IMG/VR virus record: IMGVR_UViG_2778261499_000007
Length of the DNA: 14,225 bases
From: a virus
Lineage: Duplodnaviria; Heunggongvirae; Uroviricota; Caudoviricetes
Direction: 5' to 3' (one strand)
The position numbers and the translations under genes were made by a program. Below are positions 1,544-13,293 of the stretch, piece by piece. The stretch's first letter is position 1; each line of letters begins with the position of its first letter. Under the pieces are notes generated by a model. The model had not been told where the DNA came from. It searched no databases and was given only the letters and a program-made list of their open reading frames with translations.

Positions 1544-2578
1544 TTATTTAGCCTTGGCAGCGGCGGCGGTGTTTTTAACACTCACTTTAACCACAACTTC
1601 AGGCATCATGTTCATGAAAGCATAAGAGGATTCAACGAAGATTTCGCGTTTGCCTCTGGACTCTTCCATATACATGAAAGCTTCACGTGCAGCGCCGTTT
1701 GCCAGCTTCAGGTTGCGAGCGCAAGGGCCGAAAAATTGAGTATAAACGCCCACCATATCGCCTAACGCATGCGGCTGGAACTGTGGGACTAGATAAGCAG
1801 TATTCTCTGGCAGACTATCCATTTGCACCACACGCAGGGCTAAGCCCGGAATGCGGAAGGTCGGGAAGCCCGGCAGAATATCCTCAGGGAACATCAGACC
1901 TTTATCGGTAATATTCTGATTGCCGAACAACAGCACTTTACGGAGCAGTTCATCAGTCTGAATTGCAGCAAAGAGCTCAGCACGGCAGAACAGGGTGAAA
2001 CCACGCAGAGCGCGAACGACACCACGCTGTTTAACCTTGCTCAGTGCAACCAGGTCCTGCAGCTGTTTAAGGATATCTTGAGCTAGATCCACTTCTGAAG
2101 TGGTTTGCTGTGCGCCCAGCAGTTCGCACACATTCAGTTCTTTACCCTTGGTGAGGATAATTTTGTTCTCAAAGAGAGCAAGCTGGCGTGCTTCTTCATG
2201 GGTCTGGCGTAAGCCTTCGCCCAGTTGAATAACACGACGAGCGGTTACAGACTCTAAATTCTCTTCGGAATCTTTGCCAGGAACGCGGATACCCTGCCAG
2301 TCAGAAGGATAAATAGCACTTGATGCGGCAGTGAACGCCATATCACCCGTGCCCGTTTCACGCTCATCTGCGGTAATGGTCGCCATCTGTTCACCGTAGC
2401 GCGGATACTGACCGAAAGCGGTTTGTTTCACCTGCCGAACTTTGTCATATTCAAATTTGAAGGTATTGCACAGAGCAGTAGTGTTGAAGATATCCATTGC
2501 TGAAATAATCTGATTATCCAGCGGGATGTCTTTAATCAGACCACACAGATCGCGAACTTCGAATTCTTTCTTAGCCAT
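1544..2578 (-). CDS. Major capsid protein, lambda gpE-like (344 aa)
   Basis: AGGAGG lies 6 nt upstream of the ATG at 2578. The track start at 2584 is a TTG. Size, position directly after a gpD-like gene, and overall sequence character fit the phage major capsid protein E family. It is followed by a strong terminator. Confidence 0.7.
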   Translation of the reverse strand: MAKKEFEVRDLCGLIKDIPLDNQIISAMDIFNTTALCNTFKFEYDKVRQVKQTAFGQYPRYGEQMATITADERETGTGDMAFTAASSAIYPSDWQGIRVPGKDSEENLESVTARRVIQLGEGLRQTHEEARQLALFENKIILTKGKELNVCELLGAQQTTSEVDLAQDILKQLQDLVALSKVKQRGVVRALRGFTLFCRAELFAAIQTDELLRKVLLFGNQNITDKGLMFPEDILPGFPTFRIPGLALRVVQMDSLPENTAYLVPQFQPHALGDMVGVYTQFFGPCARNLKLANGAAREAFMYMEESRGKREIFVESSYAFMNMMPEVVVKVSVKNTAAAAKAK

Positions 2579-2589
2579 TTCCAACCTCC

Positions 2590-2925: not shown

Positions 2926-3410
2926 TTGATCACCTGCGATTTAAATTAACTCCCCTCAAAGAGTTCCGGTATAACCTCTCAAACCGCGACAGGCTCGGGC
3001 CGAAAAGTTATGCCGGAAATCTAAAGGGGGATTGATATAAGGAGAGGGAGATAGCCCCGCACCGTAGCCAAGCGGGGGCTATTCCACATGGGGAAACCGA
3101 CAACAGTCGGATGATAGTTCACAGTATGGGTTACGGTTACTAGAGAGCACTATCACGAAAGGCACTCCCCCGAATCAGTTCAGGCTGCGGTCACATCAGC
3201 GGGGAAATACCTTTCGGGATAGCTACCCACACAGAAAACCCGCAAAAGAAAACTGTGTGGATAACTAGCCCAATAGGAGAATTAATCGACCACTCAACGA
3301 TGATCAGGGTAGTGTTATTTATAGGGCGGCACCGCTACCTGGTCGCCTTTACTTTGGAGGAAAATATGGCAAATCAAGATCTTCTCAAATGATATTGATT
3401 CCATACTATA
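2926..3410 (-). other. About 480-nt ORF-poor, hairpin-dense leader between the SOS promoter and the decoration gene (candidate cos/packaging region or regulatory RNA)
   Basis: Stems read directly: ATAGCCCCGC/GCGGGGCTAT (3051-3081); CCGAC/GTCGG; CCACACAG/CTGTGTGG (3228-3260); TCCGG.ATAAC/GTTATACCGGA (2966-3019, 11 bp with 1 mismatch); and a nested long hairpin at about 3140-3226. There is a GC-rich quasi-symmetric block, GGGCGGCACCGCTACCTGGTCGCC, at 3324-3347. Confidence 0.4.
3256..3264 (-). promoter_or_regulatory. Perfect DnaA box (TTATCCACA on the minus strand)
   Basis: The plus strand reads tgtggataa, 9/9. It lies within the 3' arm of the CCACACAG/CTGTGTGG hairpin and its 3' flank. Confidence 0.35.
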
Positions 3411-3445: not shown

Positions 3446-3775
3446 CACCTTGATTATATAAATTCTAATAATTAGCGTAGTAACGGTATTTTCAGACCTC
3501 TATCAATCCCATCAATACGTCACCCCCACCCTTTAGATGCATACATCCGACCTACTTTGTAGGCTTGGCGTACTGCCAAGGTCGCAGCTATGCGACTCCT
3601 ATCTATCACCACTTTATAAAGCTTGATAGATATCTTTTGATCAATATCAATGTTTTCCGGGTATTTACCCGGCTATAGTTCGAATCAAGGAAGGGGAGCA
3701 TTGATAGAGACACCCAAAGGGGTGACTGAAAGTCACCTGGCATAGCCAGTGAAAGCACCCAACCGAACAAACAAA

Positions 3776-4025: not shown

Positions 4026-4286
4026 ATGACGGGGGCTAAAGATATCAGGAGACTGAGGGAAGAGCTGATAGCTGAAATTAAAGCTAAGGCAAAGCAAATG
4101 GAGATAGCCGCACAAATGGATGTAGCGGAACAGATGTACAAGATGGTTGAGGAGGGAACGCCACGACAGGTTATCGCTAAAACCTTCGGTGTGGGGATCG
4201 CCACCGTGCACAGAAGGCTGAAAGCCTATGCCGACTACCACAATATCGAGAGAAAGGAGGATGGGAGATTTAAGAAGAATAAATAG
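4026..4286 (+). CDS. Stand-alone recombinase-type HTH protein (86 aa; coiled helix plus a Hin/resolvase-like HTH, no catalytic domain)
   Basis: GTPRQVIAKTFGVGIATVHRRL aligns with Hin GHPRQQLAIIFGIGVSTLYRYF (10/22 identical, from memory). The N-terminal 40 aa is a charged helix. No serine-recombinase catalytic domain is present anywhere in the element. Confidence 0.55.
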   Translation: MTGAKDIRRLREELIAEIKAKAKQMEIAAQMDVAEQMYKMVEEGTPRQVIAKTFGVGIATVHRRLKAYADYHNIERKEDGRFKKNK

Positions 4287-4292
4287 TAGGAA

Positions 4293-4336
4293 CAGGCCCG
4301 AAGGGCTTAGCTTTAGCTAAGGTCCTATCAGGACTC
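4293..4336 (+). repeat. Inverted repeat IR-R (44 nt, partner of 1437-1480)
   Basis: Sequence: caggcccgaagggcttagctttagctaaggtcctatcaggactc. It starts 7 nt after the HTH gene stop. Confidence 0.9.
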
Positions 4337-4366
4337 CCACACAGTCCAACAGGTTATTAACTAAAT

Positions 4367-4392: not shown

Positions 4393-5103
4393 ATGTTTAA
4401 AGGTCTTGTTGTTACGCTATTGGCTTGCATTGTATTTGGTCCATGGGTGTTAGTAATTGCTTTACCTATATTGCTGATCATGAGCTTAGGGAATGATATT
4501 AAAAAGCTGCATGCACAATATAAGGAGCATCCTGGAGCAGTCATAACAAGTCTGGTTATAGTCGCGGGGCTTATTGGCTGGGTCTACTTCTCTCTTCCCA
4601 CAGGAAATACAACTGCAAATGTAGAAGAGGCGAACGCACAGCATGAAGAAGTGGTTAACGTCGCCGACCTTACATGGGAGGACAGGGTAAAAGCATATAA
4701 ATATATTTATGGTGTGCTAGATTGCGATCTCTCTAAAGATATAGGATGCACAGATAAATACCAGATTCACGCCTGGCTGTGGAATCATGCAGAAAAAGGT
4801 GCTTGCAACCAGATTAAAGTGGCGGTTAACAGTGGGGCACCTACTGGGAAAAATAAAGATGTTCTGACGGTATGGTGCAAGGATGTAAAAGGCAATGATC
4901 GTTGGCTACAGATGCGCCACATGGACGGTGTAAGCATAGAAACTACACGAACGGCTCGATGGTATAACGGTGAACTCGTTCACGAAGCATGGCAGAATAA
5001 CGCCTGGATCACTGAGGGAACACTCCTGAATGTTGATATGGAAGCATTGAAGATGCTTAATGAGATGTACGGTGAAGCCGTAGAAACCTCTCCGATGAAA
5101 TAA
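4393..5103 (+). CDS. Membrane protein (236 aa) with N-terminal TM helices and a Cys/Trp-rich extracytoplasmic domain; function unknown
   Basis: Hydrophobic stretches: LVVTLLACIVFGPWVLVIALPILLIM and VITSLVIVAGLIGWVYF. Soluble C-terminal domain. Followed by a strong terminator. Confidence 0.6.
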   Translation: MFKGLVVTLLACIVFGPWVLVIALPILLIMSLGNDIKKLHAQYKEHPGAVITSLVIVAGLIGWVYFSLPTGNTTANVEEANAQHEEVVNVADLTWEDRVKAYKYIYGVLDCDLSKDIGCTDKYQIHAWLWNHAEKGACNQIKVAVNSGAPTGKNKDVLTVWCKDVKGNDRWLQMRHMDGVSIETTRTARWYNGELVHEAWQNNAWITEGTLLNVDMEALKMLNEMYGEAVETSPMK

Positions 5104-5113
5104 CCACACCTAC

Positions 5114-5140
5114 CAGGGGCCATCACGGCCCCTTTTTATT
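5114..5140 (+). terminator. Rho-independent terminator
   Basis: AGGGGCC-atcac-GGCCCCT followed by TTTTTATTT. Confidence 0.8.
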
Positions 5141-5200
5141 TATCCCCTATTTACACTCCTTTCAGTCCTGATCATCACTCCCTACCCCCTGATCAATTAA

Positions 5201-5251
5201 CCCCTATTTAAGGGGTATTTAATGGGTATTTAATGCCTATTTATTGATTTA
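5201..5251. repeat. Phased 11-bp repeats (SSSTATTTAWK, 4-5 copies)
   Basis: TATTTA starts at 5205, 5216, 5227 and 5238, an exact 11-bp period. There is a degenerate copy at about 5247 and an isolated copy at 5148. Confidence 0.7.
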
Positions 5252-6486
5252 ATCCGTTTTATGCCACAACCGCCCGGTTGACAGAGTAAGAGAGAGGGTG
5301 TAACCCTTTTTCGTAATACTAATAAAATCAATAGCTTAGCTCAATTGGCCTTTTCTCTGTTTTTGTCAAATTTAACATACCCTAAAAAACTGCAAAATCT
5401 GGCTGCAAGATTATCTGCAGCTGGATTTCTTACACCTCAATTTGTGGTATCACCCTGACTAGTTTGTGCATAAAATGAACAGTTTTTAACATTTCCTCTT
5501 CACCTGGTAACCACACAAAAAGCTAAAAACGAGGCACAGATAATCTTAGAGGCCTGTTTTCTTGTTATCACTCTGGAAACGTCGTAGAAGTGATTTTGAT
5601 GAAAGATGACCTACCCTATTACACCCCCATTTTTTGTTATCACAATTGCATCCTGTGCGGTGTATGGCTGTGTGCTGAAAGCGGTCTTGGGTGTGGGTGT
5701 CAGAAATATCCATTAGCGGTATTAATACCCGTCAGATGTTCGTCTGAGGTGCCAGGCAGGCGCTCCCCCACCTCCCTTTTTTCTTCTAACAATTCTCAAA
5801 TATCACACCACTGCCGACCACGTTACTACTCTGTTAATTCTTAAGCTTTGCTGTATGTTGTGCACATTATTTATTCAGGTGCGTGTACGTAAATTCTGGG
5901 CCTCCTTATCATGATTTTTAAATCAGATTTTGTAGTTCGGTTTCTTAGTGTAGATAAGATCTATTATGTTAAATGCAATTTTCCCAACCCTTCAAATCAA
6001 TGACTTACATGTAAGCATGCACTAACACCCCACACAGCACATTAGACGTATAGATGGCTATATCCCACATTTTTGATTGTTTTGTAGTCATTCCCCTGAT
6101 CATTTAACCAGTATAGTTTGTTCTTTGCAGACCACAAAATCGGAATTTACATCTGATTAACATAATCTGTTAGCATGATCACTATTACCCACACAACAAT
6201 AACCCCATGCAAGACTCTTCAGGCAATTTATCGGCGTGTTGGTGTGAACAGTCTTTCATGTTCTTTATGTTTTCATTGTCCTGTGTGAGGGAAGGATGGA
6301 CTGCCCCAGGGGCCACACTTATGATGCCCGGTCAACATAGCTATTGATAAAATCAACGGGTGTTGATCTGCATATTTCCCACACATGAGAGGAAATCAGA
6401 GCAAAGAGAGAGGAGAGAGGTTTGCTAGTCAAAATAGGTCAATTGACGGCTAATACAGAGTAAAAAATCAGATGCAATCACTCCCC

Positions 6487-6673
6487 ACCTGTTGGGATTT
6501 CCCGCACCTGTATAAGAATACAGTCATACTTTCCCGTTATACGGTCATACACATGATGGAATAACCTGTTGGAATTTCCTACAGGTTTAACCATACACAG
6601 GAGCTAACCTGTTGGAATTTCCTACTACTACCTGTCGGTATTTCCCACAGGTACCTGTTGGAATTTCCCACAC
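6487..6673 (+). repeat. Iteron array (5 x 21 bp, ACCTGTTGGAATTTCCCACAS); candidate replication origin
   Basis: Copies start at 6487, 6564, 6607, 6630 and 6653. The last three have a 23-bp period. Each contains an internal ACCTGT...ACAGGT dyad. An AT-rich flank (6674-6708) contains GATCTATTCTCTT on the minus strand (6683-6695), 1 mismatch from the oriC 13-mer GATCTnTTnTTTT. Confidence 0.75.
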
Positions 6674-6797
6674 TAATAGATAAAGAGAATAGATCAATAA
6701 AAAGAACTCCCCCTATAATCCCCCAACAAGGGGGGATGGGGAGGGATCAGAGAGTGGGGAAGGTTTTCTAAGGGAAAAGCTTAACCCACAAATGAAA

Positions 6798-7086
6798 GCC
6801 TAAAGAGCATTAGCGACTCTTTAGGCAATCTGTGTGTGGGGTGACAATGTATTCCATACATGACACGTCACCCAATTGTGTGTGGGGTGCTTACAGCACT
6901 TAAGCCTCTGGCTTAACCCTTCGGGCCTCTGTGTGGGAAGCGTAGTGCGATAGCACGTAGCTTTATAATGTGGAGTCCGGATAAGAGACTTCTGTTTCCA
7001 ATCCGGACCGTTTAAGCGAGGGATTCCGCTCGCCCGTGTATGCACACACGTAATAGGACGCTCAGAAATCGATTTTAAGGCCCAAA
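6798..7086 (+). other. Cluster of GC-rich hairpins (candidate structured ncRNA or single-strand initiation signal)
   Basis: GCCTAAAGAG/CTCTTTAGGC (6798-6826); GGGTGAC..GTCACCC with nested ATGTAT/ATACAT (6839-6873); CCC-TTCG-GGG context (6917-6925); GTCCGGAT/ATCCGGAC (6975-7008); GCGAG/CTCGC (7016-7033); AGGCCC/GGGCCT (7069-7086). TGTGTGTGGGGTG occurs twice (6831, 6877). Confidence 0.35.
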
Positions 7087-7231
7087 ACGGGGCCTACAGC
7101 AACCTAAACCATACTCCATAGTGCAATTGCATTGCCTGATGCTTAAATCGCGTTGTAGGGCATCTCATGAGGTTTGAGTTTAACACCCTCCAAAGTTTTA
7201 ACAAAAAGTGCTCTCCCTCCATTGTGGGCCA

Positions 7232-7261
7232 TTGACAATCTTATTGCATAAATGCTATAAG
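7232..7261 (+). promoter_or_regulatory. Promoter P1 (TTGACA-18-TATAAG)
   Basis: Read directly. Shares the ATTGACAAT motif with P2 and P3. Confidence 0.5.
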
Positions 7262-7360
7262 TGATTCTGGTTTTGACACGGTAGGGGCCATTAATAATGT
7301 TTACCCCTTTGCTGTGGACTTGCTTGCACCTATAGCACACCTAAATGATAATAATTCTCA

Positions 7361-7389
7361 TTGACAATTGGTTGACAATATGATAAGAT
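7361..7389 (+). promoter_or_regulatory. Promoter P2 (TTGACA-17-TAAGAT)
   Basis: Read directly. A second TTGACAAT lies 11 bp downstream, at 7372. Confidence 0.5.
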
Positions 7390-7424
7390 TATAAATAGGG
7401 GGAGAAACAGATCCGGAGGTCAAT

Positions 7425-7574
7425 GTGGAAATTACTGATGCAATAGCGATCATCAACCTGGCTGTACTGTGGTGCGGTGTTGCCTACATAGCCGGAGTAA
7501 CTGCAATCGACAATCTCGAAGAAAAAATGATAGATAAATACAAAAAGATTGTTGACAATTTGACGAATGTCTGA
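7425..7574 (+). CDS. Small single-TM peptide (49 aa, GTG start)
   Basis: GGAGG lies 5 nt upstream of the GTG. Translation: VEITDAIAIINLAVLWCGVAYIAGVTAIDNLEEKMIDKYKKIVDNLTNV. Not in the ORF track; translated by hand. Confidence 0.4.
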   Translation: MEITDAIAIINLAVLWCGVAYIAGVTAIDNLEEKMIDKYKKIVDNLTNV

Positions 7575-7580
7575 TAAAAT
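7552..7580 (+). promoter_or_regulatory. Promoter P3 (TTGACA-17-TAAAAT)
   Basis: Read directly. It lies inside the 3' end of the 49-aa ORF. Confidence 0.55.
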
Positions 7581-7630
7581 ATAAAGCATAGGGTAATTCT
7601 CATCATAGTGAATTTCCTTAAACAAAAATG

Positions 7631-7662
7631 CGGGGGCTTGTCTTAAGTTCCCGTTTCTTTTT
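7631..7662 (+). terminator. Intrinsic terminator / attenuator in the leader of the replication operon
   Basis: CGGGGGCTT-gtctt-AAGTTCCCG (9-bp stem including two G.U pairs) followed by TTTCTTTTT. It sits between P3 and the ATG at 7706. Confidence 0.55.
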
Positions 7663-7705
7663 AACCGTATATCGCACAGGCGGTGAGCTGACAGGAGATT
7701 GAATC

Positions 7706-7915: not shown

Positions 7916-7939
7916 TAAATAATCTTGGAGGATCATATT

Positions 7940-8326
7940 ATGGCAAATAACGATGAAAATTTTACTCCCTTTTTTAAACGTTTCATCAAATACACTTTTA
8001 AAAATCCGATTGCAAAAACTGCAACCAATAAAGAAAGATTTCACTTAAATGTGTTGGAGGTAACAATTTATGGTGAAATGGTAAGTTATTCTTTTAAGGA
8101 GGGTGAAGAAATAATTATCTCAGAGCTCTCGACGCAGACATTAGCAGACGATTATGATGTTACAGAGAAAACAGTAAGGTCGGCTATCAAAACATTAGAG
8201 GCTGCAGGTCTGATAAACGTTAAACGAGAACAGGGCAAATCGAATATCTACGAATTGCTAATTACCCCTGATCAGCTTGGCAAGATGTGCGATGAGCAGG
8301 GTATTAGAGAATATTTTATATATTAA
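7940..8326 (+). CDS. Winged-helix DNA-binding protein, short paralog of the Rep-like protein (128 aa)
   Basis: GGAGG lies 8 nt upstream of the ATG at 7940. The track start at 7925 is a TTG. It aligns along its whole length with the N-terminal 130 aa of the next protein (FTP.F..FI.Y.F..P.A....NK...ERF.L...E..IYG.MV...F.....I.ISE...LA.......VSAIK.LE.AGLI......G.SN.Y.LL.TPDQL..MC.E.G). Confidence 0.65.
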   Translation: MANNDENFTPFFKRFIKYTFKNPIAKTATNKERFHLNVLEVTIYGEMVSYSFKEGEEIIISELSTQTLADDYDVTEKTVRSAIKTLEAAGLINVKREQGKSNIYELLITPDQLGKMCDEQGIREYFIY

Positions 8327-8337
8327 TGGGGGGAACT

Positions 8338-9258
8338 ATGGCAGGAAATAAACTGGGGGCACCTTTTACCCCCTCTTTCGATTTCTTTATTCAGTATGAT
8401 TTTGATAAACCAGTAGCAACAACAATTTCTAATAAAAAGACTGGAACAGTTAAAGAGCGCTTCTATTTAACAGACTTTGAAATGTTGATTTATGGAAAAA
8501 TGGTGGGATTTCATTTTAACGGTGAGGGAATTTATATTTCAGAGCAAAAACTGGCAACTCAACTCAGAAAGGATCGCGGGAAAATAGTAAGCGCTATTAA
8601 ATCTCTGGAAAATGCCGGGCTTATTTCTAAAGATAGCCGGAAAGGCATGTCTAATAATTACAAATTGCTGAAAACCCCTGATCAATTGTTGGATATGTGC
8701 ATTGAGAAGGGCGTAAATATTCCAGAAGGCATCTTAGAGACTTTCGGAAAGACTGCCGCTAAAGTAGAACAGCCTCAGGAAGCCCCAAAACAAGCCACAC
8801 AGCAAGCTAAAAAGGCTAAAGTAGTGCAATTGCCTACCCAAGACACTAAAGCGCCTCAAATTAACGCTGTTAGTGACAAGCCACGCCGGGGCCGTCCTGT
8901 GAAAGATGTCACCGATGGAGGCTGGATCGTCCTGGGTGAGAGTGAGGCTAAAGGCATAATGCGATCACTGTGGGAAAGCAAATACAAAGATTTAAACAAA
9001 CGTCGCCCGATCCTTTTGTCAAAGATTCAGGAGGATTTTTACACCGCAGAAGAGGTAAGCCAACATAAAGGGAAAAGAGAGGGTGAAATCTGGAAACCGG
9101 AAGAATACTGGCATTTAACCAGACCTGTGTTTATTTTTGCAAATAAGCTTATTGGGATGGGATTTGAAATATTGTTGGATAAAACCTGCGGAGATTATCC
9201 CGAAATATTGTGGAGAAATGTTAGAAAAAATAAAAAAGGCATTTTAGAGTTTAAATAA
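8338..9258 (+). CDS. Putative replication initiator (306 aa): N-terminal winged helix plus a PRRGRP basic linker plus a C-terminal domain
   Basis: GGGGGG lies 4 nt upstream of the ATG at 8338, and the paralog alignment starts at MAGNK. The wHTH pattern is typical of plasmid/phage initiators. The iterons lie about 1.3 kb upstream. Confidence 0.55.
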   Translation: MAGNKLGAPFTPSFDFFIQYDFDKPVATTISNKKTGTVKERFYLTDFEMLIYGKMVGFHFNGEGIYISEQKLATQLRKDRGKIVSAIKSLENAGLISKDSRKGMSNNYKLLKTPDQLLDMCIEKGVNIPEGILETFGKTAAKVEQPQEAPKQATQQAKKAKVVQLPTQDTKAPQINAVSDKPRRGRPVKDVTDGGWIVLGESEAKGIMRSLWESKYKDLNKRRPILLSKIQEDFYTAEEVSQHKGKREGEIWKPEEYWHLTRPVFIFANKLIGMGFEILLDKTCGDYPEILWRNVRKNKKGILEFK

Positions 9259-11190: not shown

Positions 11191-13293
11191 ATGGCAATGA
11201 AGGAAGTAGCCAAGCTAACAAACGTTATTTACTGGGATTCTGATAAATCCAGCTGGCGAAAAGAAGTTAAACGGCTTGAGGATTATAAAAAATCCTGGAA
11301 GAAAGCTACCGACGATATAGCTAAAGCGGATTTTAAATCTAATCAGGCTGTGCTCAGAACACAAAGAACACGCGCTAAGGTGGAAGAGCAGATCGCCAGA
11401 GCACAGAAGAAACAACGTGCTCAGGCTGTCAGCCGTCTGACCGGGGGCAATAATCCGGAGCTCTCCTCTATGCGCAAGTTCTATCAGCAGCAAGCCAGAG
11501 AGGCCGCCAGACAACAAAAACTGTTAGATCGTAGTGTTGGAGATGTTCAGCACAGAAAAGCACGTGTAGGGGCCAACAGTGCACGAATCAGCAGCATGTT
11601 TGATGGCTCCCTGGTTGCTCAGTTCCAATCCAGAATTCAGAGAGTTAATGCTGATTATGCTAAAGGGGCTATTAACCTGCAGACCTATAATCAGAAAATG
11701 GCCCGACTCAGATCTGAAATGAAGATGGCAACAGCAGAGGCCGGAAAATTTCAGAGCAGACTAGACAAAGCTGCGGTAGCAGGATCAAAGCTGCATGACA
11801 ACCTGGGCAAACTCAACTCCACACTAGGCAAGATAGCTATTGGCCTTACTGCCGCTGGCTGGGGTGTTCAGCGTGCTGTTAGTGGTGCTATGGGTAGCCT
11901 TGCAGATCGCAACAGTGCGTATTTCAGCTTAATGGCCCAGAACAAGGATGATAAAGAAAAAACTGATCAGCAGATGGCCTACGTCAAAAGAATCTCTTAT
12001 GACTACGGGATGGATCAGCGTGAGACTGAAGGCGGCTTTATGCGCTTTGCTGCAGCCACACCAAGCATAAAAGAGAAAGATAAGCAGGATCTCTTTGAGG
12101 CTATGGCGATTAAAGGCCGATCAGTGGGTGCTACCGCAGACCAACAGAACAGGGCTATCGTTGCACTAGGACAAATATATAGCAAGGGCGGTCGAGTGTA
12201 TGCGGAAGAGCTTAAGGGCCAACTTTCTGAAGCCCTGGCAGGTTCTCAGGTAGATTTCACTAAGGCCGCTATCGATGCCGGAGTCATCAAGAAAGAGGAA
12301 GAATTTAATAAAGCCCTTGAAGATGGCAAGATCACCATGGACAAGCTTCTTCCTTCTCTGGTGAAAATCTGGGGTGCTGCAAAAGAAACTAAAGCTTTTG
12401 CTGAATCCATGAAACAGCCAGAAGTAGCAATGCAGCGCATGAAAAACAGCTTTAACGAGCTGGCGATTCAGTTTATGGGTGTTGTGGATCCTGCAGATGG
12501 CGTTATTAGCTTATCTGAATCTCTAATCTCCATCTTCGAAGACCTCACCACTGATATGGACGGCAGCGGGAGCGCGGCAAAACAGTTCGGTGAGGCAGTC
12601 GGGGCTGCCATGCGGGAGATCATGTATTGGGTAGGCTTCGCTAAGGGATATATCGAGATTAAGGCTAAAGAGTTCGGCATGACCAGTGAGGAAGTCGGAG
12701 GATGGATCGGCAAGCTGGTTGTTGCAATCGCAGGTCTGAAGATCATCGGCACACTTCTTTCTCCGTTTACCGGACTGATTTCACTTGTCACACAGCTGAT
12801 AGCCTTGTTAGGTAAAATCCCTGGTATGAGCAAGCTTCTGGCTTCTGCCTCAGGTGGAACGGCAACAGGAGCAGCGGTCATCAGTGCAGGATCTAACGCT
12901 GAAAGAAGTTTCATTGATGGCAAGACGCAGGAAATGAGTAAGGAGAACTCAAAACAGGGTGCTTTGTTTGAGCTGGGAAGATTTGTTAGCAATGCTGGCG
13001 CACTATTCACACCTGGCGGTGATACTGGTCCTTTGTTCGATCAGGTCAGAGGCTGGTTTAATAAAGGGCCAACATTGACAGTAGACACTGGCATCAGACC
13101 AACACCAACGGGTGGCATAGCTATCCAGAATGGTGGATATCAACCAGTCCAAGTAAATGTAGCCCCACAAGGTGAGATTTCCGGCAAATGGGAGATAACC
13201 ATCGATGAGGGGGGAATTGCCAGGGTAATTCAGAAGGAAGTCAGCGATCAGTTGGATTGGAAAGCCACGCAGGAATCTAACCAGCTTTTCTAA
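11191..13293 (+). CDS. Tail tape measure protein (700 aa)
   Basis: GAGG lies 6 nt upstream. Long coiled-coil N-terminus. Conserved tape-measure core: ADQQNRAIVALGQIYSKGGRVYAEELKGQLSEALAGSQVDFTKAAIDAGV. Gly/Ala-rich hydrophobic segments: GKLVVAIAGLKIIGTLLSPFTGLISLVTQLIALLG. Confidence 0.85.
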   Translation: MAMKEVAKLTNVIYWDSDKSSWRKEVKRLEDYKKSWKKATDDIAKADFKSNQAVLRTQRTRAKVEEQIARAQKKQRAQAVSRLTGGNNPELSSMRKFYQQQAREAARQQKLLDRSVGDVQHRKARVGANSARISSMFDGSLVAQFQSRIQRVNADYAKGAINLQTYNQKMARLRSEMKMATAEAGKFQSRLDKAAVAGSKLHDNLGKLNSTLGKIAIGLTAAGWGVQRAVSGAMGSLADRNSAYFSLMAQNKDDKEKTDQQMAYVKRISYDYGMDQRETEGGFMRFAAATPSIKEKDKQDLFEAMAIKGRSVGATADQQNRAIVALGQIYSKGGRVYAEELKGQLSEALAGSQVDFTKAAIDAGVIKKEEEFNKALEDGKITMDKLLPSLVKIWGAAKETKAFAESMKQPEVAMQRMKNSFNELAIQFMGVVDPADGVISLSESLISIFEDLTTDMDGSGSAAKQFGEAVGAAMREIMYWVGFAKGYIEIKAKEFGMTSEEVGGWIGKLVVAIAGLKIIGTLLSPFTGLISLVTQLIALLGKIPGMSKLLASASGGTATGAAVISAGSNAERSFIDGKTQEMSKENSKQGALFELGRFVSNAGALFTPGGDTGPLFDQVRGWFNKGPTLTVDTGIRPTPTGGIAIQNGGYQPVQVNVAPQGEISGKWEITIDEGGIARVIQKEVSDQLDWKATQESNQLF

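Follow-up and report, generated by a model that had tools for sequence, protein, structure and literature searches.

The 14,225-nt window analysed here (IMG/VR record IMGVR_UViG_2778261499_000007) is a plasmid-like element related to plasmids of E. coli, and between positions 6785 and 7095 it carries at least nine stems in tandem, set beside what appears to be its replication origin. This hairpin array is built of modules that are exchanged between related plasmids, its stems carry compensatory base changes, its repeated octamer changes strand across the origin, and its core is shared at the DNA level with virulent rV5-like myoviruses, of which the element looks like a plasmid-borne satellite. 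We consider it very probable that the array is a cis-acting arm of the origin that the element has in common with a helper phage. As to how such an arm might work, we propose tentatively, and with somewhat less than even confidence, that it is an origin accessory made of DNA hairpins resembling single-strand initiation (ssi) signals, at which a primase or primosome would begin priming.

A hairpin array beside a putative lambda-type origin

A reading made from the sequence alone had described this region as a run of strong stems lying back to back, and folding calculations agree. With RNA parameters, positions 6780-7100 reach -121.4 kcal/mol on the plus strand (z -4.9) and -116.6 kcal/mol on the minus strand (z -5.1); with DNA parameters the z-scores are -4.9 (plus) and -5.5 (minus). 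These scores are relative to dinucleotide shuffles, none of which equalled the native sequence in any of the four runs. Because the array pairs almost entirely by Watson-Crick base pairs, both strands can fold.

The array opens with a module that we call M0 (6785-6840), in which inverted-repeat and minimum-free-energy analysis finds a perfect 10-bp stem (GCCTAAAGAG/CTCTTTAGGC, 6798-6826) that is lengthened by pairing of CCCACA (6785-6790) with TGTGGG (6835-6840). The remaining modules all read on the plus strand. Module A (6831-6876) has the leader TGTGTGTGGGG and a nested double hairpin, with an outer stem of GGGTGAC (6839-6845) and GTCACCC (6867-6873) around an inner ATGTAT-TCC-ATACAT. The same leader heads module B1 (6877-6929), which contains three mini-hairpins of 5, 7 and 3 bp: GTGCT-TAC-AGCAC (6887-6899), TTAAGCC-TCT-GGCTTAA (6900-6916) and CCC-TTC-GGG (6917-6925); the CCTTCGG within the last of these (6918-6924) is CCGAAGG on the minus strand. 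Next come the two halves of a core pair. The first, C1 (6930-6968), consists of TGTGTGGG and the hairpin AAGC-GTA-GTGC-GATA-GCAC-GTA-GCTT (6938-6963) followed by TATAA, and the second, D1 (6969-7008), of TGTGGA and a long hairpin (6975-7008) with a perfect 8-bp stem (GTCCGGAT/ATCCGGAC), an internal loop, and an inner stem GAGAC/GTTTC that includes one G.T pair. The tail of the array (7009-7095) adds hairpin E (GCGAG, 7016-7020, with CTCGC, 7029-7033) and the stems CGTGT/ACACG (7035-7050) and GGCCC/GGGCC (7078-7095).

Most elements of the earlier description can be assigned to these modules: its 10-bp stem is that of M0, its 8-bp stem that of D1, its nested double hairpin is module A, and its C(UUCG)G-type loop is the CCC-TTC-GGG hairpin of B1. 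The tandem TGTGTGTGGGGTG units that it placed 46 nt apart start at 6831 and 6877, and a third copy starts at 6930. The GC content, which it judged clearly higher than in the flanks, is indeed raised, but only modestly (0.49 at 6751-7050 versus 0.42 in each flank). Its statement that the region lacks an open reading frame (ORF) holds for conserved frames only: a 74-codon ORF with a GTG start does cross the array on the minus strand (6821-7045). We reject it as a gene, as it is broken by module swaps and losses in relatives; because the modules that it crosses are exchanged or absent there, it is not conserved. ARAGORN found no tRNA or tmRNA.

The array lies in a gene-free stretch of 2.3 kb (5104-7424) that also houses five palindromic 21-bp iterons of the ACCTGTTGGAATTTCC type (6485-6671), presumed to be initiator-binding sites, and an AT-rich stretch, TAATAGATAAAGAGAATAGATCAATAAAAAGAAC (6672-6710), which is conserved in all members of the plasmid family and is presumed to be the DNA-unwinding element. 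It begins 88 nt past the AT-rich stretch, 127 nt from the last iteron. The genes at 7925-8326 and 8326-9258 encode lambda-O-like, winged-helix initiators (PHROG matches to replication initiation and O-like families). With an O-like initiator, five palindromic iterons and an adjoining AT-rich stretch, the region has the marks of a lambda-type origin, and we infer that 5104-7424 is such an origin with an extra arm of hairpins. The position originally given for the array, between an origin and rep promoters, is also borne out, as plus-strand promoter-like sequences with TTGACAAT follow it at 7233-7262, 7361-7389 and 7552-7580 (the second and third predicted, the first found by eye).

Exchangeable modules with a constant core

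The array region was aligned first across nine reference plasmids, the only ones in which iterons were read, and later across 31 family loci. In all 31 loci the array is directly downstream of the AT-rich stretch. It consists of cassettes, each with a leader TGTG(TG)GG or TGTGGA and then one to three hairpins, and there are 4-8 modules per array, unlike in sequence, on one strand and in variable order. Every one of the 31 arrays ends with a core pair, either C1-D1 (as in this window) or C2-D2, and the halves of a pair are always linked. The core is preceded by 0-3 accessory modules (A, B1-B4, X, Y), of which A is present in some relatives only, and is sometimes followed by B7. The stem of hairpin E recurs with other loops in loci L002 and L043 and in a phage cassette described below. 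Iterons are of different types in different plasmids of the family, and one type can go with either core type; because the array type is independent of the iteron type, the array is not an initiator-binding site but a separate, exchangeable part of the origin. This mosaicism is also the reason why megablast found the flanks but no array in half of the relatives.

Covariation, which the sequence-only reading had named together with an Rfam scan as a check on its structures, is found in the stems of modules B, D2 and D1. For module B, two helices were scored in nine variants, including the window copy at 4343-4290 (minus strand) and one rV5 copy. In these, 99.1% of cells are paired, 8 of the 12 pairs have changed on both sides and none on one side only, and no shuffle or slid register approaches this score. 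There is not a single G.U among the 107 cells, despite 19 double changes. Between plasmids and rV5, three of the six pairs in the D2 stem differ by compensatory change, and the 24-nt loop is identical at 23 of 24 positions. In the D1 stem, a C-G pair of the plasmid is replaced by a compensated T-A pair in a phage contig. In M0 the stem is invariant across the family and the loop varies. The compensatory changes and the conserved loop classes indicate that selection acts on structure. Six rV5-type arrays that we compared are 95% identical, which is too little variation for covariation analysis.

A polar octamer switches strand at the iterons

In the window we count 10 copies of the octamer TGTGTGGG where 0.43 would be expected; none of 200 shuffles reached 10. 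To the left of the iterons all seven copies are on the minus strand, and to the right all three are on the plus strand; across seven complete plasmids this polarity holds in all but 2 of 63 copies. Three conserved copies to the left (6378-6385, 6188-6195 and 6029-6036, minus strand) mirror those of the array and are near-invariant, the octamer being altered in only 2 of 36 listed variants even as the flanks vary. A switch of strand at the iterons is the polarity expected of a signal that is read relative to fork direction.

Several familiar identities for the octamer were considered and rejected. It is not a DnaA box, as TTWTNCACA is absent near the origin and is not enriched, nor is it Chi, of which the window has zero copies (GCTGGTGG). 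A '5'-UTR module', in which a hairpin and CCCACACAA precede a ribosome-binding site, fits only about 4 of 52 rV5 copies. Elsewhere in the window, at 3226-3261, CCACACAG (3227-3234) and CTGTGTGG (3253-3260) form an 8-bp stem with an 18-nt loop in which the octamer is paired with its own complement.

The core of the array is shared with rV5-like phages

Since its first and last 77 nt are identical, the window represents an entire circular contig (14,148 bp). Its relatives are 13.2-14.4-kb plasmids of E. coli, Shigella and E. albertii. Among its genes are those for a major capsid protein (1544-2584, minus strand), a Dit-like tail protein and a tape measure protein (11191-13293). Of these, the capsid and tape measure proteins share about 25% identity with their counterparts in rV5-like myoviruses, virulent members of the Vequintavirinae with genomes of 137 kb. 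Because the plasmids carry capsid and tail genes related in this way, the element looks like a plasmid-borne satellite of these phages. Annotations of the family plasmids list only 14-16 genes, and none of these is a terminase, portal, lysis or integrase gene.

In the phage rV5_ev168, a 660-nt non-coding gap (64,320-64,979) shows the same order of parts as the plasmid: a 116-aa winged-helix ORF, four palindromic repeats (CTGTCCGT..ACGGACAC), about 120 nt of AT-rich DNA, and a GC-rich run of hairpins with the leaders ATGTGTGGG, ATGTGGA and ATGTGTGGA. The 116-aa ORF matches the 133-aa ORF of the window with E = 4e-7 (RefSeq label 'replication initiation protein'). Over 61-69 nt, the plasmid D2 module and the phage share 84-85% identity, and two plasmids also carry the phage's first large hairpin at 87% identity. 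The rV5 array matched 119 phage records and is present in each at 89-100% identity; all are of Vequintavirus type (18 are labelled Campylobacter phage), and conservation is higher in the array than in the DNA immediately preceding the repeats. The window's own array gave no match to phage records by megablast or blastn, and a pattern scan of viral contigs for M0 returned nothing; the connection with phages emerged only from the D2 allele of sister plasmids and from a scan for the exact D1 pattern.

That scan found an exact 26-nt match to D1 in Ga0129313_1000039, a 137,418-bp rV5-like metagenomic phage contig (L056) that has the compensated D1 stem (GTTCGGAT/ATCCGAAC) and also a C1-like copy. 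A 1-kb insertion in this contig (2157-3130), absent from rV5_ev168 (near rV5 coordinate 11.25 kb), forms a second putative origin cassette. In it, a 152-aa winged-helix ORF is joined by four CCxGGGGAATTTTCCCC iterons and an AT-rich stretch, and C1'-D1'-E' come after some 300 nt of other sequence. The same metagenome contains a family plasmid, Ga0129313_1001591 (L057; 13,870 bp), of which about 11 kb matches the window at 85-99%, and the two contigs fit a helper-satellite pair. As far as these sequences go, the hairpin arm belongs regularly to an 'origin cassette' exchanged between rV5-like phages and their satellites. It has been conserved at the DNA level although the proteins shared by phage and plasmid are only about 25% identical; because the core is shared in this way while the proteins have drifted so far, the array is probably read by a helper factor.

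Two further non-coding stretches of the window, 3704-3755 and 4294-4334, are 82-83% identical (over 42-52 nt) to a gene-free 2.5-kb region of rV5_ev168 (104,000-106,560), where several copies of TGTGTGG and, on the minus strand at 105,000-104,940, a B-type three-hairpin module are also found. One of the window's own B-type modules, which we call B6, spans the second of these stretches (4290-4343, octamer on the minus strand), in the gap between the ORFs 4026-4286 and 4393-5103, and has an 83% match to rV5 104955-104996. In two family loci, L006 (NZ_CP020521.1) and L016, a 450-500-nt insertion replaces M0. This insertion brings three direct repeats of a different set, AT-rich DNA and an rV5-type large hairpin (GTGTCGGCCC...GGGCCTCC), so that the array is preceded by a second unit resembling an origin.

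A possible role in priming DNA synthesis

The tentative proposal that the array serves priming runs as follows. The initiator would open the AT-rich stretch, and a helicase moving outward would leave the array single-stranded. Its hairpins, which would be poorly bound by single-stranded DNA-binding protein (SSB), would act together with the adjoining single-stranded octamer as ssi signals; at these a primase or primosome, from the host or in the form of the helicase-primase of an rV5-like helper, would enter or start. The entry sites would then set where the first DNA chains start, and the array would be the part of the origin that is read by a helper-encoded replication factor, so that the satellite replicates during infection. 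Among the roles suggested in the sequence-only reading, an origin-linked ssi or primosome signal fits best, given the position of the array after the iterons and AT-rich stretch, its recurrence in rV5 and the octamer switch; a non-coding, copy-control or antisense RNA is left without positive support from a known RNA family, a promoter or a fixed architecture, the cassettes being shuffled.

A more specific version, to which we give only slender odds, is that the array is a combinatorial ssi set common to the virulent rV5-like myovirus and its satellite. In that case octamer and hairpin together would be the recognition unit of a helicase-primase or origin factor, and C1-D1 and C2-D2 would match different helper lineages. 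If true, the array would decide which phages amplify the satellite and would constitute a new, cis-acting 'replication passport' between satellite and helper.

The closest parallel is the IncQ plasmid RSF1010. There, RepC at the iteron-bearing oriV starts unwinding and a helicase exposes ssiA and ssiB, each ssi unit comprising a specific single-stranded hexamer, a hairpin, and, on the 3' side, a GTG triplet in which synthesis starts (PMC8567376); a CCGAAGG mini-hairpin is part of the ssiA hairpin (PMC13037366). Both systems are in an origin, beside iterons and an AT-rich stretch. The CCGAAGG heptamer is present here as well (6918-6924, minus strand), and the modules run TGTGTGGG, hairpin and the next TGTG, which might correspond to the motif, hairpin and GTG of an ssi unit. 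Opposite polarity on the two sides is also common to both, although here only the octamer recurs on the opposite strand, to the left of the iterons. In contrast to the two near-identical 40-nt signals on opposite strands of IncQ plasmids, this array has 4-8 unlike modules in variable order, and its octamer is not known from IncQ. IncQ plasmids encode a Pri-type primase, RepB', whereas no primase turned up when eleven different window ORFs were scanned against Pfam and PHROG (ten per library); the matches were to capsid, Dit-like, and O-like or helix-turn-helix proteins. With no primase among these ORFs, many unlike modules and a different motif, the array is not a member of the IncQ ssi family.

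Other priming sites and origins share single features with the array. G4-type sites have about three hairpins in about 140 nt, on single-stranded DNA left uncovered by SSB. In plasmids R1 and R100 the G-site is downstream of oriR; that of R1 reportedly (Masai and Arai, 1989) follows the initiator-bound origin at a distance of a few hundred bp and determines where the leading strand begins. The C-D-E core resembles such sites in having three hairpins in about 105 nt. We know of no sequence similarity between the two, and the arrangement differs: G4 starts at a CTG 3' of hairpin I, whereas here the conserved motif, TGTGTGGG, stands on the 5' side of each hairpin, and only a subset of modules has CTG ahead of the octamer. 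The primosome assembly sites of the phiX174 type (PriA n' sites; ColE1, pBR322, F) are hairpins with little consensus that load DnaB and primase. They are like the array in placing hairpins on a strand exposed next to an origin, but are single 50-70-nt hairpins without a repeated leader, and modular arrays of them are not known. The lambda origin has four palindromic iterons, an AT-rich stretch and a 28-bp palindrome. It shares with this element the O-like initiator, palindromic iterons and the order of iterons, AT-rich DNA and palindromic DNA; its one short palindrome is inside the O gene, whereas here a 300-nt hairpin array with a polar octamer lies outside genes.

Among satellites, the PLE of V. 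cholerae is said to have its own initiator, with replication tied to its helper ICP1 (a report attributed to Barth et al., 2020). PLE, SaPI and P4 resemble the present element in having their own iteron-binding initiator and replication tied to a helper phage; they use the replisome of the helper and are chromosomal islands (P4 can also be a plasmid), whereas this one is a plasmid, and to our knowledge no hairpin array shared with a helper origin has been described for them. Two kinds of repeat array were considered and rejected. A CRISPR or type III ToxI array, which would need near-identical repeats of about 25 nt or more with a fixed period, is contradicted by a shared unit of only 8-11 nt, by periods of 46, 51 and 39 nt, by 'spacers' that are hairpins, and by finding no cas or toxin gene among the window ORFs scanned (Pfam/PHROG). 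REP/RAYT elements, in which one palindrome with a conserved 5' tetranucleotide recurs in many copies, do not fit because the hairpin sequences differ between modules and no transposase was found among the same plasmid ORFs.

Hairpin signals beside plasmid origins are already known, but in the literature we found no description of a shuffled module array with a polar octamer, of two core alleles, or of DNA-level sharing between the predicted origin of a virulent phage and a plasmid satellite. The distribution of the array suggests that satellites copy the cis-acting arm of a helper's origin and keep their own initiator, and module shuffling together with the two core alleles suggests a way to change or widen helper range. 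The rV5-like phages, common E. coli phages that are studied for therapy, have no mapped origin; if our reading holds, the combination of initiator-like gene, iterons, AT-rich stretch and hairpins would be a candidate for it. A short polar octamer with defined hairpins is, moreover, a signal that can be tested directly in priming assays.

Evidence against priming, and the alternatives

Several observations weigh against this interpretation. Because no primase gene was found on the plasmid, the enzyme must be assumed. The octamer is unlike the known primase sites: the preferred sequence is CTG for DnaG and GTC for T7-type primases, and CTG or GGGTC is present in only some modules. The octamer shows no enrichment across the rV5 genome, which rules it out as a motif used throughout the helper genome. 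B-type modules are also found in intergenic positions 2.2-2.9 kb from the iterons, a poorer fit with a role confined to the origin. As for rV5, its origin is no more than a prediction: the paper on the genome was unable to locate one (PMC3606486), and the literature that we searched holds no description of it. Lastly, the evidence on the folding strand points both ways. By eye, G.T wobbles in the C and D stems number 4-5 versus 2 in favour of the octamer strand, and with RNA parameters this strand has the lower energy in 26 of 26 plasmids. It is also the sense strand of the downstream genes in the plasmid, in the main rV5 locus and in the second phage cassette, so that a role as RNA is possible.

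The loops point to the other strand. Triloops of the form TNC on the octamer strand, which are GNA on its complement, account for 7 of 21 unique cases (p ~2e-4), CCGAAGG included, and this bias favours folding of the strand opposite the octamer. In DNA, mini-hairpins of the GNA and GNNA types have very high stability; they are found at the G4 origin, a further likeness to G4-type sites, as well as in RSF1010 ssiA and the N4 single-stranded promoters (PMC13037366). An automatic count of wobbles in hairpins gave 36 G.T versus 48 A.C, which is too noisy to call the strand.

The most serious alternative, which we nevertheless regard as unlikely, is that the array acts as a plus-strand RNA: a structured leader, a stable non-coding RNA, or an origin transcript that controls R-loop or primer formation, as with ColE1 RNA II and the T4 and T7 origins. 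The sense orientation in three contexts, the plus-strand energies and the G.T wobbles, which concern the C2, C1, D1 and D2 (Aya) stems, all speak for it. In addition, the rV5 array is probably transcribed, because prediction places neither a terminator nor a promoter between the initiator-like gene and the gene after it; the G-rich tract upstream of the plasmid array (6730-6759) would favour R-loops; and the combination in D2 of a conserved loop and a covarying stem is that of protein- or RNA-binding hairpins. Were this alternative correct, the array would represent a new RNA family common to phage and satellite.

Other findings count against an RNA. The energy advantage of the plus strand is trivially inflated, because that strand is G+T-rich; the TNC/GNA bias favours its complement, and the absence of G.U pairs from module B is hard to square with RNA folding. 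The number and order of modules vary freely, unlike those of a single folded RNA. The sequence-only reading had named no matching RNA class, and Rfam 15 likewise has no match in the whole window at gathering thresholds. Relaxing the search to E up to 5 over 5000-7700 gave none other than an unrelated weak match to an L20 leader (7578-7666), and for the rV5 array only a chance-level match appeared, which takes in chiefly the upstream AT-rich stretch and no more than the first ~100 nt of the array. Promoter prediction found no promoter-like site on either strand placed to transcribe the array, and none lies between iterons and array. Upstream there is a single candidate, at 6297-6325 (9 of 12 matches), from which transcription would have to traverse the iterons. 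TATAAT at 6715 was rejected as a promoter, being specific to this window and not conserved in the family.

We think it improbable that the array serves as a minus-strand transcription insulator, at which leftward transcripts would meet hairpins and C-rich, G-poor CCCCACACACA tracts (possible Rho loading sites) and stop at M0, keeping the origin free of transcription. M0 does look like a terminator on the minus strand only (6826-6798 followed by TTTCATTTGT; the other hairpins have no T-run), and with a strong plus-strand terminator-like site at 5115-5133 guarding the other side, two such sites flank the origin region and face inward. Two B-type modules, at 3700-3760 and 4290-4345, also lie between plus-strand genes in the orientation 'hairpins then CCCACACA', an arrangement that would suit intergenic RNA hairpins. 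However, no convincing leftward promoter is found to the right of the array, where the strong promoter-like sequences all face right, and the rV5 array is oriented oppositely to local transcription, so the role cannot hold there. An insulator would also leave unexplained both the strand switch of the octamer and the DNA-level conservation in phages.

A packaging (pac) site for the helper terminase, with the octamers as sites for the small terminase subunit, is just as hard to credit. A satellite without a recognisable terminase gene needs a site that the helper terminase can read, the array is among the few stretches with DNA-level similarity to rV5, and it contains short repeated motifs of the sort that pac sites typically have. 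Against this, the rV5 array is about 4 kb from the terminase gene and adjoins iterons, an AT-rich stretch and an initiator-like gene; the octamer spacing is irregular (46, 51 and 39 nt); compensatory changes preserve hairpins and not duplex sequence; the two core types are unlike in sequence, yet both are present in rV5-like phages; and a strand switch at the iterons would be meaningless for packaging. The conserved non-coding block at 5186-6442 is, besides, an equally good candidate.

Finally, selfish or neutral palindromic repeats that spread by recombination at the octamer and have no replication role (compare REP, or the promoter-stem-loop cassettes of T4-type phages) would account for the mosaic arrays, with modules gained, lost and swapped between plasmids otherwise 90-95% identical, for the copies in several non-coding regions of plasmid and rV5, and for the octamer as an obvious recombination joint, but seem very unlikely given a C-D core in the same place in 31 of 31 arrays, an rV5 array more conserved than its flanks in the 119 matching records, compensatory changes and conserved loop classes that speak for selection on structure, and a strict octamer polarity around the iterons that such repeats would not be expected to show.

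Other features of the region and the element

The strong terminator-like site at 5115-5133 (plus strand) comes first in the gene-free stretch. It is followed by a gene-free block of 1.25 kb (5186-6442) that is 90-95% conserved across the family, which makes it more conserved than many coding parts; packaging and partition are candidate roles for it, and the three conserved minus-strand octamers described above lie within it. Between the AT-rich stretch and the array is a C5-6/G5-6 palindrome with a run of G-tracts (6711-6775, plus strand), conserved in the plasmid family and absent from rV5. The run itself, GGGGGGATGGGGAGGGATCAGAGAGTGGGG (6730-6759, plus strand), begins about 20 nt past the AT-rich stretch, has four tracts of three or more G and could form a G-quadruplex on the octamer strand. 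The motif TTGACAAT of the rightward promoter-like sequences may double as an operator; as an extended -35 element it is shared by P051 and P074 among the predicted rV5 promoters (PMC3606486, Table S4). The modular build, the phage homology and the terminator-like character of M0 on the minus strand only had all escaped the sequence-only reading.

The satellite family may itself be the larger finding. Neither this plasmid family nor satellites of Vequintavirinae are described anywhere in the literature that we searched, and a search of viral and genome contigs with the capsid protein for related loci returned nothing. The family is widespread: it is present in 7 of 5426 complete E. coli genomes, and a 49-aa ORF of the family is found in 1657 blocks of the assembly collection, mostly 10-20-kb contigs. 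One family member, NZ_CP043822.1 (p3RM10740, L009; 39.6 kb), is a head-to-tail trimer of a 13.2-kb plasmid with one copy partly rearranged, and could be a true multimer or an assembly artefact. The tandem initiator-like winged-helix ORFs of the window are 133 and 310 aa long; most relatives have one such ORF of 285-310 aa, and some have a pair of 165 aa and 295-297 aa.

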